Made by a program: the position numbers and the translations under genes | IMG/VR virus record: IMGVR_UViG_3300024493_000235 | Span: 32,001-96,000 of that record | DNA length: 64,000 nucleotides | Reading direction: 5' to 3' (one strand) | Origin: a virus | Taxonomy: Duplodnaviria; Caudoviricetes | Notes under the pieces: generated by a model | Databases searched by the model: none | The model's input: the letters and a program-made list of their open reading frames with translations, nothing else | What the model was told of the DNA's origin: nothing | Shown here: positions 31,708-62,029 of the stretch, in pieces | Numbering within the stretch: the first letter of the stretch is position 1 | Layout of the letters: each line of letters begins with the position of its first letter

Positions 31708-32040
31708 ATGGTTATAACTGACATTATTTTTGAGCAGAGGGATGAATATTTTAATACCGACCCCGAAGGACTTGAAGAGCGTAAAAATAACGCTGCCGAA
31801 ACATTTATCGATGAGTACCTTGGTGTACTAAACGATATTGTCTATGGAATGTACAATGAAATAATCACGCAGGTTAAAAATTATATGCACAGAATGTCGA
31901 TATACGGATATAAACCGAGTCGATTTCGTAACATGTATTTTTCAAACAAAAGCAAGGATCCGAAGTTAGCAAACGATGACACCGTAAATAACACCGTCAT
32001 TAAAACCCTGCGAAGAATTCACAGGGTTATTTTTTGTTTG
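31708..32040 (+). pseudogene. 3'-truncated gene with no stop before its terminator
   Basis: Promoter 31674 and AGGAGG RBS; frame runs through hairpin 32004-32027 and T tract into the next promoter. Confidence 0.45.
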
Positions 32041-32073
32041 AGTATATATAATATCAACATGAAGGAGAATGTA

Positions 32074-32502
32074 ATGATATACACATCGTATTTCGCTATT
32101 TCAAAAAGTTGTCCGTTTCCGATATCTATTACGGCAACACAACCGACGGGATTTTCGTATCCAAGCCTATCAATGCTTGCTGTACCGAAAGATCTTTCTG
32201 ATGAATATAAAACTCGTCTTATAAAAGATGAGAAATATATTGAAAGATACAATGAAATGCTTAAAACACTCAATGTATCTGATGTACTTGAAGCTATTGA
32301 AGGATTAAAAAGACAACGTTACTATTATGGTAGCGATTGTACATTGATTTGCTGGGAGAAACCTGGGATATTTTGTCATCGTAATCTCGTCGCAGAATGG
32401 CTTAAACGTGAAGGACATCTTGTGGCAGAATTTGATGTAAATTCCTATGTTCCTAAGAAACAAGAAGGTCCGACATCTGTATACAAGCCGGGTAAAAAAT
32501 GA
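32074..32502 (+). CDS. DUF488-like protein
   Basis: Own promoter (32043) and AAGGAG RBS; MIYTSYFA...LICWEKPGIFCHRNLVAEWL. Confidence 0.75.
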   Translation: MIYTSYFAISKSCPFPISITATQPTGFSYPSLSMLAVPKDLSDEYKTRLIKDEKYIERYNEMLKTLNVSDVLEAIEGLKRQRYYYGSDCTLICWEKPGIFCHRNLVAEWLKREGHLVAEFDVNSYVPKKQEGPTSVYKPGKK

Positions 32503-33678: not shown

Positions 33679-34023
33679 ATGACAGAAAAAGATACACTTA
33701 AAATGATCCAAGATCAAACTGCTGTCGATGATTGGAGACAAATGCAAACTGACCTTGTCAATTTGTTAAATAGAACAAGGGATGCCGAGGGGCTGATACA
33801 TGTTTATCTTACAAATCTTGTACAATTTCTTACACAAGCGACTGCACAGACAATAAAAATAAACACAGCCCATGAATCAAGGGTGATATCGGAAGAAGAA
33901 TTCTTAAGACAAATAGAAGATCTTACTCCCGAAATTCACCATAAACTTTCAAAGAAAGAAATCGTCATTCAATTATTGTTTGATGCTCTTTCTATGGACG
34001 GAGGAGTTCCACATGCCCAATAA
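33679..34023 (+). CDS. Hypothetical protein
   Basis: 114-aa ORF, AGGA RBS. Confidence 0.65.
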   Translation: MTEKDTLKMIQDQTAVDDWRQMQTDLVNLLNRTRDAEGLIHVYLTNLVQFLTQATAQTIKINTAHESRVISEEEFLRQIEDLTPEIHHKLSKKEIVIQLLFDALSMDGGVPHAQ

Positions 34024-38924: not shown

Positions 38925-39126
38925 GAGAAATTAACCATGGAAAACGACGATCATTTTTTGATACTAAACAACCTTTTTGATTACTATTATAATAATTTAC
39001 AACGCGGGGATTTATTATCTGTGATACGTAACATCATCCTAGGGCCATTACGGCCCTAGGTGTTATTTTTTTGTATAAGTGAAATAAAATTTAAAATATA
39101 TATAATAAAAGATAAGGAGTCCTTTA

Positions 39127-40428
39127 ATGACAAAAGAAGATAAATATATAGTGAAAATGCTTGACTTACTTGAAAGAGATTCTCATTTAGATACACTTAC
39201 AAGGCCCATATTCTCCATCGTTCGAAATGATCCTAAACGTACAACATTTTCAAATAAGGGAATGCACTATACTTACTTAGCTACAATCCTTGATGAAAAC
39301 GGAAAAGTAATTATCGTAATAGACTATGACGGAGATCATTTCGGCAAAGATTACGCTATCGATATGAAAAAAGATATTCGTATCTCTTGCAGACCGAAAG
39401 GATCGAAGTTACTTGTACTCTTATCTAATATGCCGGAATTTCACGTTCAACAATGGATACTTAAATATTTACAGCAAGATGAAAAAACATTCTTCGAAGA
39501 TCGCTTTAAAACGTGGATATCAAGAGGATACTTTTGGTATAAAGATGTAAAAGATTTTAACACTCCCGATATTTTATTAAAAGATTGGAGCAACTTAAAA
39601 CATTTTACACCAAAAACAAGCGACACAAAGTCGTATTCAAATGTTATAAACGGAATTTCAAACATCGGAATGACCCTCATAAAATACTTTCATCCGTCGA
39701 TATATCGTTGTCGTATGAAAGACAGACAAAGCCCTGAAAATATATGGTACCACCAAGATAAAGATGGAAACTTTGATTTGTTGTTACAGATGTTTAATGA
39801 ACACAGAATGTATTTAGATTGGTTCATGTGTTACAGAGTGATCCAAATGTTTGAGACTACAGACGTTGCGCCAAGAATTCCGATATTAACTCCTTCACGA
39901 GCTAAACTATTGCTATATAAATATGCAGGAGAATTTAACGAAATCTTCAATCCATTTTCAGGATTCTCAAGCGTATTATTAGCCGCAACTTCTCTTGGAA
40001 AAAAATACCTTGGCTACGATATCAATCGTACAGTTGTGCACGAATCTCAATGCATGATAGAATGGTTTGAAAAACATAAAATTCCCATTGATGCACACGT
40101 TGACAGAAAAGACGCATTTATTGATAACGACAGCAATAACCCGTTTCAAAATACATCGAATACATACGGTTGTCTATTCTCGTGTCCTCCTAATGGAGAT
40201 ACAGAAATATATTATGACAACATGATACAAGAAGAATTCTCATCATCGTATTCCTGTGAACAATGGGTACAATGGTGTCTTGATACATACAAATGTAAAA
40301 GATACATCTTTGTTGTAGACTCTAGGTGTAATAAGTTTCAAGGATATGTACAAGAAATTCTTACAACTAAAAGAGTTTCAAGATATCCTTTTAGCACACA
40401 TGAGAAAGTGTTGGTGTTTGACAGGTAA
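39127..40428 (+). CDS. Endonuclease-like/DNA methyltransferase-like fusion, degenerate paralog
   Basis: IVIDYDGDHF; FNPFSGFSS (motif I), YLGYDIN, LFSCPPN (altered motif IV). Confidence 0.65.
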   Translation: MTKEDKYIVKMLDLLERDSHLDTLTRPIFSIVRNDPKRTTFSNKGMHYTYLATILDENGKVIIVIDYDGDHFGKDYAIDMKKDIRISCRPKGSKLLVLLSNMPEFHVQQWILKYLQQDEKTFFEDRFKTWISRGYFWYKDVKDFNTPDILLKDWSNLKHFTPKTSDTKSYSNVINGISNIGMTLIKYFHPSIYRCRMKDRQSPENIWYHQDKDGNFDLLLQMFNEHRMYLDWFMCYRVIQMFETTDVAPRIPILTPSRAKLLLYKYAGEFNEIFNPFSGFSSVLLAATSLGKKYLGYDINRTVVHESQCMIEWFEKHKIPIDAHVDRKDAFIDNDSNNPFQNTSNTYGCLFSCPPNGDTEIYYDNMIQEEFSSSYSCEQWVQWCLDTYKCKRYIFVVDSRCNKFQGYVQEILTTKRVSRYPFSTHEKVLVFDR

Positions 40429-40441
40429 TGGAGGAAAACAC

Positions 40442-41503
40442 ATGATAGCAGACATAATTGTAGGTATGCAATACGGTTCGGAAGGGAAAGGTGCTTTTGT
40501 AAATCACGCATTACAAATGGAAACCGGTTATAATATGTCGATGAGAGTCCAGTCAACACAATCGGGACATACTATATATTTTAAAAATCAAAAATATATA
40601 ATGAGGTCCATTCCTTGTGCATGGGTAAACCCGAATGTCGAATTATTGCTAGGTCCCGGCGCTTTTACAGAAAGGGATATTCTTTTGGATGAAATAAAAA
40701 GTATAAATGGATCTCTTGGAGGAGATGTGCGCGATCGACTTTTTATAGACAAAAGAGTATTTGAAGTTGAGGACCGTGATAAGCGAAAAGAAGCAGATCA
40801 AAAACTTGATAGCAGAATTGGAAGCACAATTCACGGATCAGGTTCCGCACTAAACGAAAAAATATGGAGAAAACGCACAAGAGGTAATAAAAATTTTATC
40901 GAATGGTGCCTTGCAAATAAGATAAATGTCGTTGACACAATAGACCATATACAAAAAGGAACTCTTTTAATAGAAGGATGCCAGGGAGCTATGCTTTCTA
41001 TTCATACATCACCTTTTTATCCGTATGTAACATCCAGAGAAGCCACAGCTTCAGGAATCTTATCAGAATGTGGAATATCCCCACGTGATGTAAGAAATAT
41101 CTTTGGTGTCTTTCGTACATTGCCAATCAGAGTAGGAGGGAACTCAGGACCTACAGGATCAGTTGAAATTACTTGGGAAGAAGTTTCTAGGAGAGCAGGA
41201 TATAATGTAACACCAGAAAAGACTTCCGTTACTGGCAGAATTAGGCGTATCTTCGAGTTCTCATATGATGATATGGCTCACGCTATTAGAGTAAATAAAC
41301 CCACGCACTTAATTATGACCTTTGCAAATTACATCGCTCCTTGTTTTGGAATTGATTCATGGGACAAAATTGACATCAATTCCAAAAGAAACATAGATAC
41401 ATATACATCTGTAGTAAACAAGCTTTGCAAAAATATTACACCTAACAATACTTATGGTATTGTATCAATTAACACAAATCCAATTAATTGGATAGATATC
41501 TAA
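40442..41503 (+). CDS. purZ: Adenylosuccinate synthetase-family protein of the PurZ type
   Basis: GMQYGSEGKG (Ser at PurA Asp13), SGHT, IGST, IEGCQG, FYPYVTSR, RTLPIRVGGNSGP, TFANY; start ATG 40442 after GGAGG. Confidence 0.7.
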   Translation: MIADIIVGMQYGSEGKGAFVNHALQMETGYNMSMRVQSTQSGHTIYFKNQKYIMRSIPCAWVNPNVELLLGPGAFTERDILLDEIKSINGSLGGDVRDRLFIDKRVFEVEDRDKRKEADQKLDSRIGSTIHGSGSALNEKIWRKRTRGNKNFIEWCLANKINVVDTIDHIQKGTLLIEGCQGAMLSIHTSPFYPYVTSREATASGILSECGISPRDVRNIFGVFRTLPIRVGGNSGPTGSVEITWEEVSRRAGYNVTPEKTSVTGRIRRIFEFSYDDMAHAIRVNKPTHLIMTFANYIAPCFGIDSWDKIDINSKRNIDTYTSVVNKLCKNITPNNTYGIVSINTNPINWIDI

Positions 41504-41593
41504 TTGATAAATAAATAAAACCAAGGGGCCAAATGGCCCCTTGGAGTTTTTCTTTTGACTATTCGCCACCCGATGCTGGAAAGACGCTCATCA
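41504..41593 (+). repeat. Direct repeat of 43695-43767 (terminator plus tail-tube 3' end)
   Basis: GGAGTTTTTCTTTTGACTATTCGCCACCCGATGCTGGA identical in both copies; hairpins nearly identical. Confidence 0.9.
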
Positions 41594-41653
41594 TTTTTAA
41601 AAATAAATTAGAATATATATAATAATGGTATATTAAATATAAGGAGAATACTT

Positions 41654-43705
41654 TTGAAAGATATGGAGCTTACATGCACTAAATGTAACAAAACATTTTC
41701 ATTAACACGTAACGCATTTTTGAAACGGCAATACAGAGGTGTCGATACATCTCTATGTCAATGGTGTAGTAAAGCACACACAGAATTCAAAGATCATATA
41801 TATGTGCCAAAGTCAGAAAATCATATTTGCCAAAAATGCGGTAAATCCTTTACACTTACAAGAAGTGCATTTAATAAACGGAAATGCAAAAAACAAGATA
41901 CTACATTATGCAATCCGTGCAGAACAACTCAAACTACTTCTGATCGTCACGGATATGCATCTCCGCTTGCAAATCCTAATATATTACAGAAAACAAAAGA
42001 TACAATGCAAGAAAAATACGGTACAACATACGCACTACAGATTAAAGACGTTGAGGGTGTAGGATATCAAAAAGCTGTCACAACATTTCAAGCTAATTAT
42101 CACACTAATGCAGCAAATCCGTTAATGCATGCAGAAACACTTGAAAAAATAAAAGCAACAAATGTGGATAGATATGGAGATGCTAACCCATTGAATAATC
42201 CTGAAGTCAGAGCAAAGCAACAACAAACAATGATTAAACTATATGGAGGAAAACCCCAAGCAGAATCGGAAGAATGTAGAAAAAGAGCACTAGAAGTATT
42301 TCGAACAAGATACGGTCAAAATTGTTATTTGCAGTCTGCTCATTTCTCTGAGAAGATGGTACTAAAATTTGGAACAAGATACCCACAACTTACAACTCAT
42401 AGTAGTAGCAAAGAAGAAAGACATGTGTTCAGCAAAATTGAAGAACTCTTTTATCACGGTTTACTTAAAAATTCCAAATATACATTTATTTACAATGATC
42501 GAGAAAAATATAAAAACAGTGCTTTATTCACTTTCTCTTATGGTGATACCGATCATCCGTGGGACGGAATAGTGCTCAACGAAGATTATAGTATTGCACT
42601 CGTAATCGATTATGATGGTGAATATTATCATGGCGATTATCCTGACTATGATGGCGTACATTCTTCAGAAGAAAGGGATTCTATCAGAATGAAATGTGTT
42701 CCTAAAGATGCTAAGATACTTATCATCTATAAAGATACTCAGGATTACATTAAAGATATCGTTGACATACTTGGTATGGATTACGACGAATGGCTTAATA
42801 AGTTATACAACTATTGTTGTGGTATCGATTTTCCATTCTATCACAATTATTATTACGAAAAACAACTTTTACACAGTTGGAAAGCGCTTGCACTATTTAC
42901 TCCTGAGAAATGTGATAAAAAATCGTGGACAAAGCTCACCCAAGGACGCTCTACACTAGGTGGAAAACTTATTAATTATTTTCACCCGTCTATTTATAAA
43001 TGTCACACCAAAGGAAAAATATCACCATATGATGCATGGTATCATACCGATGAAAATGGTAATCGTGATTTACTTCGTAAATGTATTCGTAATAGAAGTA
43101 TTTATGCAAATTCGTATAAACCATATCGGATACTGCAAGGTTTTAACATTTCTGATATTGCACGAAAAATAACTACATTTTCAGCATCCAGAGCAAAAAT
43201 GTTACTCATAAAATATGCGCAAGAATTTGACCAAATCTTTGATCCTTTTATGGGATTTTCCGGTCGTCTTCTTGGAACTGTGGCTCTTAAAAAAGCATAC
43301 ATAGGAAACGACATAAATAAAACCATTATACAAGAAGCAAAAAATCTTATTAGATGGTTTGAAAGGCATAACATCGAAAATAGAGTTATTTTGACAAACA
43401 ATGATATACAATCGATCCCAAAAGAATATTCGATGCATAACGACGAATGCTTGTTTACGTGTCCTCCATACAAAGATACCGAAATTTGGTACGACGAAGT
43501 ATCAAAGCGAGAGATTAGATCTAATATGACAGCGGAGCAATGGGTTGAATTTTGTCTTGACACATTTAACTGTAAAAGGTATATATTCGTCGTCGATTCA
43601 CGATGTAACAAGTACAACAGCAATGTACAAGAAATATTTGTTAATAGAAGATCTGCAAAATACCATGTAAATCTTCATGAAAAAGTACTTGTTTTTGATA
43701 AATAA
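41654..43705 (+). CDS. Zn-ribbon + YG-repeat + Vsr/DUF559-like endonuclease + amino-methyltransferase fusion
   Basis: CxxC pairs, YGxxN repeats, WD...LVIDYDGEYYHG, FDPFMGFSGRLLG, YIGNDIN, LFTCPPY. Confidence 0.75.
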   Translation: MKDMELTCTKCNKTFSLTRNAFLKRQYRGVDTSLCQWCSKAHTEFKDHIYVPKSENHICQKCGKSFTLTRSAFNKRKCKKQDTTLCNPCRTTQTTSDRHGYASPLANPNILQKTKDTMQEKYGTTYALQIKDVEGVGYQKAVTTFQANYHTNAANPLMHAETLEKIKATNVDRYGDANPLNNPEVRAKQQQTMIKLYGGKPQAESEECRKRALEVFRTRYGQNCYLQSAHFSEKMVLKFGTRYPQLTTHSSSKEERHVFSKIEELFYHGLLKNSKYTFIYNDREKYKNSALFTFSYGDTDHPWDGIVLNEDYSIALVIDYDGEYYHGDYPDYDGVHSSEERDSIRMKCVPKDAKILIIYKDTQDYIKDIVDILGMDYDEWLNKLYNYCCGIDFPFYHNYYYEKQLLHSWKALALFTPEKCDKKSWTKLTQGRSTLGGKLINYFHPSIYKCHTKGKISPYDAWYHTDENGNRDLLRKCIRNRSIYANSYKPYRILQGFNISDIARKITTFSASRAKMLLIKYAQEFDQIFDPFMGFSGRLLGTVALKKAYIGNDINKTIIQEAKNLIRWFERHNIENRVILTNNDIQSIPKEYSMHNDECLFTCPPYKDTEIWYDEVSKREIRSNMTAEQWVEFCLDTFNCKRYIFVVDSRCNKYNSNVQEIFVNRRSAKYHVNLHEKVLVFDK

Positions 43706-43767
43706 AACCGAGAGGCCATTTGGCCCCTCGGAGTTTTTCTTTTGACTATTCGCCACCCGATGCTGGA
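43695..43767 (+). repeat. Direct repeat copy 2, containing bidirectional terminator 43708-43731
   Basis: Matches 41504-41580. Confidence 0.9.
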
Positions 43768-59827: not shown

Positions 59828-59980
59828 TTTTGTCTCCTTACCTCAATGATATATATTTATTTCAAAGGATCATACATAACAATCATAGATATTTTTCATA
59901 GTTATGATAGACCTAATATATCGTAAATACAAAGGTTAGGAGTATATATCATTTTGATATGTAAAAGGAGAATTACAAAA

Positions 59981-62029
59981 ATGGCAAGACCGAGAAGTTT
60001 TGAGCCAGGAAAATCTAAGCATTGCAAGTACCGGACTTTTGGGAAAACGTGCACATCGTGTGGAAAAACGTTTTTAATCACTAGCCGCAACATCTTACGT
60101 CGTCAAGGAAGAAAACGGCCGACAGATATATGCGAGGTATGTCTTAGGGCCCAAGACAACCAAACAAGATTTGGAGAAAACTACGAAGAATGGAAAGATG
60201 ACGTAAACGCAAAAAGAAAGAAAACCGTACAAAAACATTACGGCGTTGATCATCAAATGCGCAGCAAAAAAGTTAAACAGAAAGTTGTTGCAACAACACG
60301 TAAATGCTACGGAGTTGACAATGTTGCCCATTGTCCAGAAATCGTCGAAAAACGAAAAGCGACAATGAGGAAACGACATGGTGTGGATTATTCGTTATCA
60401 TCGGCAGTTCTAAGAAAAAAGGCACGACAAACGACGTTTAAAAGATTTGGCGTAGAAAATGTAGCATTACTTCCTGAGAATCAAGCAAAATTGCATTCTG
60501 CAGAAACACAAGCAAAACGTAAAGCTACTATGTTAACACGATTTGGTGTCGACTCGATGTTTAAGTTGAAAAATTTTCACGACATGAGAAGAAAAGGATG
60601 CATCAGAAATAGCGGAGAACCAGAACCTCAACTTAGAAAAAGTGGAAAGTCAGAAGCAGAAAAATCTATCACATCGAAACTGATGTTTATTTGCACAGAA
60701 GGGTTGTTAAAAGACAAACACCTTGTTGTATGCGATGATCCAAAAGATAATACAACCTGTATTACTGTACATGGTGTATTATATAGCCATAGTTGGGACA
60801 TCACAATCAGAGATCAATCTGGCAGTTTAATTCTTGTAATAGATTACGACGGTGATTATTATCATGGGGAAAAGTTTGCTGATTATGATGCTATCATACA
60901 AGCCGAATACAAAGATACCGAACGGTTTATGACAATACCAAAAGGTGTAATGTGGCACATCATAAATGAAAACGGTTTCGATACAGCCATTGAAGATGTC
61001 GTAAAGATTCTTGGATACGATTACTCCGGATTTTTGAAAAGCCTGTATGACTTTGCATGCTCCATTCAATTCCCATTCTGCAAAGACTATCCAGAATACT
61101 ATAATGATAAAACGTTATTAGGAAGTTGGCATAGACTCTGTAATTATGGCGAAGAAGACATAACAAAACCGCGATATAAATATTACAACTATGACAAACT
61201 TGAAAAGGTTGCGGACAAGTCCCGTACAGGAGGGAAACTTATTAACTATTTCCACCCATCTATTTACAAATGTAGATCTCGTGATAAGCCATCTCCATAT
61301 GAAGCATGGCACCATGTTGATGAAAATGGGGATCGCAACTTGTTAATGAAGGCAATAAAAAACCGCATGATATATTCTGCACGATATCAGCCGTTTAGAA
61401 TTCTTCAAGGCTTTTCTAATTCGTATATTGCACCGAAAGTAACGGTATTTTCTCCATCACGAGCACGACTCTATTTGCACAAATATGCACGAAAATTCAA
61501 TACAGTATTTGATCCGTTTATGGGTTATTCAGGTCGTATGCTTGGTGCATTATCTCTTGAAAAAAATTACATCGGATCGGATATAAATCCGACCATTTTT
61601 GAAGAAGCTGGAGACATCGTCAAATGGTTGGACAAAAATAAAGAACTCGCCGCCGATGTTTGCATTACATGCAAGGATATTTTAACATACGAAAGAGGTA
61701 CACAATACGAATGCTTATTCACATGTCCTCCGTATAAAGATCTTGAAATATGGTGGGATGATTTGACACAGACGGAAATACGATCAAACAATACTGCTGA
61801 AGAATGGGTTATGTATTGTCTTGAAATGTTTGAGTGTACGCGATACATTTTTGTTGTTGATGCTCGTTGTAACAAGTTTCAACCATACGTTGTTCATATT
61901 TGTAATTCTATAATAGAAAACAAATATAACTCGTATAAACGGGAAAAAGTTCTTGTTATAGATTTTGAAGACAGGAACAGAATGGGGTTTGGACAACAAA
62001 ATTTCAAATTTAGTATCGTTAAAGAATAA
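59981..62029 (+). CDS. Zn-ribbon + YG-repeat + Vsr/DUF559-like endonuclease + amino-methyltransferase fusion (paralog of 41654)
   Basis: CTSCG...CEVC, YGVD repeats, SWD...LVIDYDGDYYHG, FDPFMGYSGRMLG, LFTCPPY; start ATG 59981. Confidence 0.75.
   Translation: MARPRSFEPGKSKHCKYRTFGKTCTSCGKTFLITSRNILRRQGRKRPTDICEVCLRAQDNQTRFGENYEEWKDDVNAKRKKTVQKHYGVDHQMRSKKVKQKVVATTRKCYGVDNVAHCPEIVEKRKATMRKRHGVDYSLSSAVLRKKARQTTFKRFGVENVALLPENQAKLHSAETQAKRKATMLTRFGVDSMFKLKNFHDMRRKGCIRNSGEPEPQLRKSGKSEAEKSITSKLMFICTEGLLKDKHLVVCDDPKDNTTCITVHGVLYSHSWDITIRDQSGSLILVIDYDGDYYHGEKFADYDAIIQAEYKDTERFMTIPKGVMWHIINENGFDTAIEDVVKILGYDYSGFLKSLYDFACSIQFPFCKDYPEYYNDKTLLGSWHRLCNYGEEDITKPRYKYYNYDKLEKVADKSRTGGKLINYFHPSIYKCRSRDKPSPYEAWHHVDENGDRNLLMKAIKNRMIYSARYQPFRILQGFSNSYIAPKVTVFSPSRARLYLHKYARKFNTVFDPFMGYSGRMLGALSLEKNYIGSDINPTIFEEAGDIVKWLDKNKELAADVCITCKDILTYERGTQYECLFTCPPYKDLEIWWDDLTQTEIRSNNTAEEWVMYCLEMFECTRYIFVVDARCNKFQPYVVHICNSIIENKYNSYKREKVLVIDFEDRNRMGFGQQNFKFSIVKE

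Follow-up and report, generated by a model that had tools for sequence, protein, structure and literature searches.

All phages studied so far that carry 2-aminoadenine (Z) in their genomes are small, and their PurZ is accompanied by enzymes that remove dATP. Two clades of PurZ-type enzymes have been characterized. These are PurZ itself, as in phages phiVC8 and S-2L (PDB 6FM1, 7ODX; NCBIfam model NF038379), and PurZ0, as in the Gordonia phages Archimedes and Ghobes as well as Wayne, a phage of Arthrobacter (PDB 7VF6; PMC12884076). Incomplete Z clusters have been found to result in lower substitution (PMC8342488), and complete replacement of adenine also needs dATP-degrading enzymes (reviewed in PMC12697855). 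Here we examined a purZ-like gene in a 64,000-nucleotide (nt) stretch of DNA, henceforth the window, which comprises positions 32,001 to 96,000 of the IMG/VR virus record IMGVR_UViG_3300024493_000235 (Duplodnaviria; Caudoviricetes). An initial annotation had read this gene as a PurZ-type synthetase of a jumbo phage and as a possible sign of a Z genome. Our results place the protein in a lineage beside PurZ and PurZ0, and its residues suggest that it probably acts on dGMP with ATP. The genome that encodes it contains no recognizable set of Z partners in the 91% of it that is available.

Family, fold and active-site residues

The open reading frame (ORF) is intact, with a full 353 codons from an ATG at 40442, and its product matched Pfam PF00709 at E = 4e-38, far beyond chance, and PHROG 1211 at E = 1e-60. 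The best NCBIfam match was the PurZ model NF038379 at 209.3 bits, with a curated cut-off of 300 that was not reached. This score was nearly tied with that of the archaeal PurA (adenylosuccinate synthetase) model NF003295, which was 206 bits against a cut-off of 368, while TIGR00184 scored 143 bits against a cut-off of 396. The sequence matches in PDB were about equally distant, with 136 bits for P. horikoshii PurA, 128 for Archimedes PurZ0 and 126 for phiVC8 PurZ. An AlphaFold model, built on an alignment of 22 clade members, reached a mean predicted local distance difference test score (pLDDT) of 91.3. Its template modeling (TM) scores were 0.85 to P. horikoshii PurA, 0.84 to PurZ0 and 0.83 to phiVC8 PurZ (6FM1). 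In this model the fold is intact and of the short, archaeal-type PurA architecture. Fold comparison was rejected as a means of telling PurA, PurZ and PurZ0 apart since all three gave TM scores of 0.78-0.85.

All four motifs quoted in the initial annotation, QYGSEGKG, RTLPIRVGGNSGP, TSVTGRIRRIFEF and TFANY, were located in the 353-aa translation (Table 1), so the protein does carry the Ser, the PIRV and the FxN described there. The signature residues of PurA and PurZ given in the initial annotation agreed with the sequences we retrieved: QWGDEGKG, TRVG and TKLD in E. coli PurA; QYGSTGKG, PIRV and NFAQY in S-2L PurZ; and QFGSTGKG, PIRV and NFCNY in phiVC8-type PurZ.

Positions from the literature were transferred to the purZ-like protein by alignment. 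They include S23, the T273-T276 loop, N305/F306/Q308 and V241 of S-2L PurZ (PMC8342488) as well as S14, F12, T262, F295, Y298, W252 and P233 of phiVC8 PurZ (bioRxiv 10.1101/2025.10.22.683976). The mapped markers are residues that these two studies named as determinants for dGMP or ATP. By this alignment, Ser13 is present and the dGMP-pocket markers of phiVC8 and S-2L are kept as Tyr11, Pro228, Trp245 and Thr261. The (N/T)KxD guanine motif is replaced by TFANY, in which Phe294, Asn296 and Tyr297 make up an ATP-type base pocket. The catalytic residues of the PurA family are retained, namely the P-loop Lys, His43, Gln181, Arg143 and the RR pair. The 57 positions that are invariant in the alignment of the 22-member clade are kept in the purZ-like protein by construction.

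Phylogeny

An exhaustive homologue search yielded 408 cluster representatives at E <= 1e-30, and Asp13 PurA sequences of archaea and bacteria were taken from a genome scan. Two trees were constructed and they agreed with one another, one by FastTree with 276 rows and the other by IQ-TREE with 86 rows, using posterior mean site frequencies (PMSF) and the Shimodaira-Hasegawa-like approximate likelihood ratio test (SH-aLRT). Position 13 is Ser in 243 and Gly in 8 of the 265 collected homologues, and PIRV is near-universal among these. The Ser/Gly13 proteins with PIRV formed one clade that is separated from all Asp13 PurA with 100% SH-aLRT. In the IQ-TREE analysis the purZ-like protein was inside this clade and outside both bacterial and archaeal PurA. 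As judged from these trees, its membership in the PurZ-like (Ser13/PIRV) superclade is secure, and the phylogenetic comparison proposed in the initial annotation did not group it with canonical or archaeal PurA. The PurZ-type identity claimed there holds in the broad sense of Ser13, PIRV, the Thr, the Trp and the F/N/Y pocket; it does not hold in the narrow sense of membership in the characterized PurZ clade.

The canonical PurZ clade (support 99) leaves out the purZ-like protein, which belongs to a clade of 22 rows (support 95; 98 for the inner 20 rows) with P0002 and P0003 as its nearest kin (support 96). This clade joined canonical PurZ with only 80% SH-aLRT. Archimedes PurZ0, the sole PurZ0 reference in the tree, was elsewhere in the Ser clade. 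Most members of the 22-row clade keep the guanine-specifying Asp (TFxDY), the Asn being found in the sub-branch of the purZ-like protein, and the state of the pocket, Asp or ATP-type, changed at least 10 times across the tree. Forcing this sub-branch together with canonical PurZ, a grouping that was picked after the tree had been seen, cost 103.5 log-likelihood units (approximately unbiased (AU) test, p = 0.001). Since a union of these groups is rejected by the AU test, the ATP-type pocket of the sub-branch is convergent with that of canonical PurZ.

On this phylogeny, the purZ-like protein is a third, uncharacterized lineage beside PurZ and PurZ0 and not a hybrid. The initial annotation had suspected a mosaic between PurZ and PurZ0/PurA because of the Arg in TGR. 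That suspicion has to be dropped: the phage sequence BUCT555, which is inside the canonical PurZ clade, reads VTGRVRR, and the TGR position is no marker for PurA or PurZ as it varies (G/N/K then R/K) throughout the Ser clade. The neighbors of the BUCT555 purZ gene are PolA and DUF550. Two Asp13 proteins, P0133 and P0233 (a pair with support 99), were found nested deep in the Ser clade. Their PIRV is altered to SLRV and PMRV and their aspartate loop is altered too, and they may have reverted or changed further in function.

Compared with PurZ of phiVC8 and S-2L, the purZ-like protein is ~30-31% identical in sequence with TM scores of 0.78-0.83. It shares with them the short PurA fold, the Ser for Asp13, an aromatic residue at -2 of this Ser, GST, PIRV, the aspartate loop T-x-V-T and the ATP-type pocket F-x-N/Q-Y. 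PurZ0 likewise has Ser13, PIRV and the short fold; unlike the purZ-like protein with its Asn296, Archimedes PurZ0 keeps the guanine-specifying Asp (SMADQ). P. horikoshii PurA (PDB 2D7U/5K7X; NF003295) is the best match in PDB by sequence and by fold, and both proteins are without the bacterial insertions. It differs from the purZ-like protein in its Asp13, its TRV, its TMLDK with the Asp that specifies guanine, and its position outside the Ser clade.

The genome and the search for Z partners

The source record (G000) is a 268,442-bp virus with 36.8% G+C that is 91% complete according to CheckV, and SRR10402454 is the sequencing run in which the purZ-like gene is contained. A Pfam sweep covered 221 of its ORFs, of which 201 with 90-1000 aa were examined at E <= 1e-5 and 20 were scanned singly; 20 ORFs below 90 or above 1000 aa and the missing ~9% of the genome were outside the sweep. 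It found a divergent family B polymerase, gyrase A and B, helicases, pieces of RNA polymerase (RNAP) beta and beta', tubulin, Cpn60 and HU, as well as a Dut-family protein, a class II ribonucleotide reductase (RNR), PurC and a UraA-like permease. The presence of RNAP beta' and beta pieces in the 268,442-bp record confirms that the virus is a jumbo phage with a multisubunit RNAP, as had been supposed from the window.

Targeted searches of the record found no HD/DatZ, MazG, DUF550, DUF5664, NDT or DUF4406 gene, and no PurB (Lyase_1) or PolA gene was detected. The initial annotation had noted that DatZ, MazZ and DpoZ were not recognizable in the window and had pointed to the remaining genome for HD-domain and MazG-like genes. 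The outcome was the same for the whole 91%-complete record, with no credible match. One YfbR-like HD match in a 552-aa ORF (12.9 bits) was rejected since it had no support from Pfam at E 0.1 and none from a PDB sequence search. The genome is unlike those of phiVC8 and S-2L, which are ~40 kb in size, in that its 268 kb contain no match to DatZ, MazZ, DUF550 or DpoZ. It has a Dut-family gene in common with the PurZ0 genomes and is unlike them in having no match to the NDT-like DmtZ, DUF5664 or PolA. In tblastn comparisons of the genome with every ORF of S-2L, of a 12-kb part of Archimedes and of a 17-kb part of Vibrio phage H1, the PurZ genes alone matched. A search with the tail-tube protein for relatives of the jumbo phage found none. 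As for DNA with deoxyuridine of the PBS1/AR9 type, nothing pointed positively to such a pathway: no dCMP/dCTP deaminase family was found in the general Pfam sweep, which was not a dedicated search, and a Dut-family gene is present.

That Dut-family gene (G000 167071-167598; 76.5 bits) is the sole gene of a known partner type that was found in the record. Its product keeps all five Dut motifs, and so does gp55, the sole Dut-family gene of Ghobes and Archimedes. The motifs were consequently rejected as a discriminator between dUTPase and DutZ because all five are kept in both. Only distant homologues of the Dut-like protein were found, the best being 47% identical and encoded on a 197-kb contig.

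The Dut-family gene is part of a nucleotide-metabolism block (L099:15071-18896; G000 167071-170899) that also encodes an adenosylcobalamin-type RNR and a full-length PurC (SAICAR synthetase), the latter scoring 232 bits and so exceeding the cut-off of TIGR00081. Just 5' of this block is a piece of RNAP beta'. The uracil permease of the UraA type is encoded elsewhere (L101:18209-19420; G000 208209-209423) and scored 273 bits to a solved uracil permease. Its nearest relatives, with 62-66% identity, are in metagenome-assembled genomes of Treponema and Spirochaetaceae, a hint that the host may be a spirochaete and that the phage may salvage pyrimidines. The phage also has two DUF488 proteins of the N3a subclade, one at 31708-32499 of the window and the other from an ORF between position 33679 of the window and G000 131402.

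Clade relatives and other large viruses

The clade relatives P0004, P0021, P0015 and P0035 are 47-60% identical to the purZ-like protein and are encoded on phage contigs of 46-57 kb. Their genes are in a replication module with a primase-helicase, an ADK-like kinase, a Dut-like protein, DnaE, the PurZ-like protein, a conserved protein of 303-351 aa without assigned function and RecA. The module additionally holds a gene for a YfbR-type HD protein (DatZ family) or for DUF4406. These phages have in common with the jumbo phage the clade, the Gln at the Asn38 position and, in some, TFANY; unlike there, the partner genes of their module have no credible homologue in the jumbo genome. In a set of 80 IMG/VR loci, nearly every small contig had either a Dut-like protein and PolA or the DnaE set within 10 kb. 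As far as this gene context goes, the small phages fit a role of the clade in Z-DNA.

The conserved 303-351-aa protein is encoded directly 3' of the PurZ-like gene (L089:11114-12169, L091:7437-8360, L108:11069-12022). Its copies are 29-36% identical to one another, have no match in Pfam or NCBIfam, and were not found in the jumbo phage by tblastn. The protein is a candidate for a new component of a DnaE-type Z cluster. No description of a Z cluster with a DnaE polymerase and this conserved protein was found in the literature searched, and no paper there ties PurZ to jumbo phages or to DnaE. At the P0002 locus (L106:3077-6788, on a 9.5-kb contig) we observed an OLD-family nuclease and a UvrD helicase, which resemble a Gabija pair, together with a YhcG nuclease and an integrase.

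Homologues with Ser and PIRV (31-39% identity) were also present on IMG/VR viral contigs of 95-312 kb. Most of these had none of the partner genes within 10 kb of the PurZ-like gene, a few had only RecA, PurB, PolA or the conserved unknown protein, and none had a partner of the DatZ, Dut or NDT type within that distance. One such contig is IMGVR_UViG_3300025000_000053 (L174/L175; 250 kb, 24% G+C), a jumbo contig with a lone Ser/PIRV PurZ-like gene and an NHLDY pocket. It has at least 3 other genes in common with the jumbo phage, at 28-32% identity. PurZ-type matches in the searched collection of phages came almost entirely from records of 39-55 kb, the largest record being 83 kb, while a 735-kb phage in GenBank has a canonical Asp13 PurA instead.

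Organization of the locus

The purZ-like gene is the second of two genes in a predicted transcription unit that extends from a phage promoter motif to a terminator-like hairpin (Table 1). We counted 23 copies of the promoter motif TATATATAAT across the window, against a chance expectation of 1.3. The gap between the stop codon of the preceding gene (40426-40428) and the purZ-like gene is 13 nt and contains no terminator. The G+C content, the G+C content at third codon positions (GC3) and the codon usage of the purZ-like gene are typical of the genome, and the gene is therefore no fresh arrival by these measures.

Table 1 Features of the purZ-like locus, with positions in the window.
Feature	Position	Strand	Remarks
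Phage promoter motif TATATATAAT	39097-39106	+	~20 nt 5' of the first gene in the two-gene unit
433-aa gene, first in the predicted unit	39127-40428	+	Weak DNA-methylase-like C-terminal domain, degenerate CPPN
Ribosome-binding site of the purZ-like gene	40430-40435	+	GGAGGA
purZ-like gene	40442-41503	+	353 aa, PurA fold, Ser13, PIRV, TFANY
QYGSEGKG	40469-40492		Residues 10-17 of the purZ-like protein
RTLPIRVGGNSGP	41114-41152		Residues 225-237 of the purZ-like protein
TSVTGRIRRIFEF	41222-41260		Residues 261-273 of the purZ-like protein
TFANY	41318-41332		Residues 293-297 of the purZ-like protein
Left copy of the 70-nt direct repeat	41511-41580	.	93% identical to 43698-43767
Intrinsic-terminator-like hairpin closing the unit	41521-41544	+	10-bp stem, 8 G-C pairs, T-rich tail
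683-aa gene, DUF7487 (homing-endonuclease-like) and methylase-like	41654-43705	+	Own TATATATAAT at 41614-41623
Right copy of the 70-nt repeat	43698-43767	.	Spans the terminator, enters the 3' end of the minus-strand tail-tube gene

The two copies of the 70-nt repeat flank the 683-aa gene, and what they duplicate is the terminator together with the tail-tube gene's 3' end. Because the repeat brackets the 683-aa gene, this gene was, from the sequence, inserted at a later time, with the purZ-like gene on one side and the convergent tail-tube gene on the other, and it therefore did not bring in the purZ-like gene. The 433-aa gene, the 683-aa gene and a third gene at 59954-62029 are paralogues with a common C-terminal methylase-like domain in which FxGxS is followed by CPP(Y/N). 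They have Cys for the usual D/N/S before PPY, with CPPN in the 433-aa copy. The two long paralogues add zinc ribbons and the DUF7487 homing-endonuclease-like part; the 433-aa copy is without the endonuclease-like N-terminus. Atlas placed these proteins in viral DUF7487/N6_N4_Mtase clusters.

Discussion

We propose that the purZ-like protein probably makes succino-2-aminodeoxyadenylate from dGMP, a proposal that its residues support. The enzyme would phosphorylate the O6 of dGMP with ATP, and aspartate would then displace the phosphate to give N6-succino-2-amino-2'-deoxyadenylate. Adenylosuccinate lyase and kinases of the host could convert this product to dZTP, which the divergent family B polymerase of the phage may insert opposite T. 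The outcome expected from such a pathway would be partial or conditional incorporation of Z, or an effect on the nucleotide pool, rather than a full Z genome. Full substitution of A by Z is less likely because a complete Z cluster is absent from the 91%-complete genome and because of the published data on partial clusters. Full replacement in the jumbo phage is thus unsupported, and a Z genome in the sense of the initial annotation is possible.

Several observations weigh against dGMP as the substrate or Z as the end product. The protein is outside both characterized clades, and its substrates are therefore extrapolated; its score to the PurZ model is well short of the cut-off. It retains an Arg at the position of E. 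coli R303, which contacts the ribose 2'-OH in PurA, and its specificity for the deoxy form is therefore uncertain. Unlike phiVC8 and S-2L PurZ, it has Gln at the equivalent of Asn38 (the Asn of the NAGH motif), TNP for TGP, the position being (F/T)GP in these two, and no insertion of two or more residues after PIRV. The insertion of S-2L is held to deform the loop and to draw a conserved Val towards C2' (PMC8342488), and that of phiVC8 is shorter. Five less-studied positions that are differentially conserved also differ (Y244, G256, S273, P144 and I34). The lack of partner genes in the targeted searches counts on the same side, as does the fact that the nearest relative, P0002 (59% identity), is in an integrase-bearing element and not in a Z cluster.

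How far these observations favor other explanations differs from case to case. If the protein were a regular adenylosuccinate synthetase of the archaeal type, with IMP, aspartate and GTP as substrates and AMP as the end product, its best match in PDB (136 bits, TM 0.85) and its 206 bits to the archaeal PurA model would be accounted for. Those 206 bits are far under the 368-bit cut-off, and the catalytic Asp13 is changed to Ser, TRV to PIRV and the guanine-specifying Asp333 to Asn. With the full separation of all Asp13 PurA from the Ser clade in the tree, this explanation is hardly tenable. It is also very unlikely that the gene is a passenger without present function in the phage, as might be imagined from its solitary position amid selfish-looking endonuclease and methylase genes and from the mobile element around P0002. 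Its frame is intact with the clade-invariant positions kept (by construction, as noted above), it has its own ribosome-binding site within the predicted promoter-to-terminator unit, its codon usage matches the genome, and, as seen from the 70-nt repeat, the 683-aa gene came in afterwards and is not its carrier.

Greater weight is due to two explanations that differ from our proposal in what the enzyme acts on or in how far the replacement of adenine goes. The enzyme may have another substrate or role in nucleotide supply, acting on GMP or another purine with its product reduced by the class II RNR, or draining or rebalancing the guanine pool. The phage encodes PurC (273 bits), a B12-type RNR, a Dut-family protein and a UraA-type permease; the R303-equivalent Arg is kept and the insertion after PIRV is missing; and partnerless PurZ-like genes recur on the 95-312-kb viral contigs. 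We nevertheless regard this as quite unlikely, since Ser13, PIRV, Thr261 and Trp245 also occur in enzymes whose use of dGMP has been demonstrated, the clade's members in small phages have neighbors of the DatZ type, and no biochemical precedent for a ribonucleotide route was found in the literature searched. Alternatively, the DNA could be fully or nearly fully substituted with Z, with dATP cleared by proteins other than DatZ or DUF550, for example by the Dut-family protein acting like DutZ, and with the family B enzyme as the Z polymerase. DutZ hydrolyses dATP and dGTP and was found in 98 of 98 PurZ0 genomes (PMC12884076), and the Dut-family protein here keeps all five Dut motifs as gp55 does. 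For its Z genome S-2L relies on a PrimPol that is non-selective (PMC8065100), most of the ~240 ORFs of the jumbo phage are without a known family, and the PurZ-like gene is intact with an ATP-type pocket. On the other side, tblastn found no similarity of the Dut-like protein to the Dut-like proteins of PurZ-carrying phages. Its gene is 95 kb from the purZ-like gene, where it adjoins RNR and PurC, the record yielded no NDT-like partner, and complete replacement has been reported to require the removal of dATP (PMC8342488, PMC12697855). We consider such extensive substitution unlikely. Our preferred reading remains that of a dGMP-using enzyme with partial or conditional consequences for the phage DNA or its precursors.

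What sets this phage apart from the small Z-genome phages is a lone PurZ-type enzyme, of an unstudied lineage, in a genome of 268 kb. If the enzyme is active, jumbo phages would make Z-DNA with helpers that have gone unrecognized, or tolerate genomes of mixed A and Z, or the enzyme would take part in controlling the nucleotide pool. It is quite doubtful that most of the adenine is exchanged for Z in a giant phage that has its own multisubunit RNAPs, a tubulin and a shell protein resembling chimallin, by means of a lone PurZ from a new lineage, a repurposed Dut-family dATP/dGTP pyrophosphatase and a divergent family B polymerase. If it did, this would be a third, independently assembled pathway to Z-DNA and the first in jumbo phages. 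As for the wider clade, it suggests that there is a Z cluster with a DnaE polymerase and the conserved 303-351-aa protein at its core.

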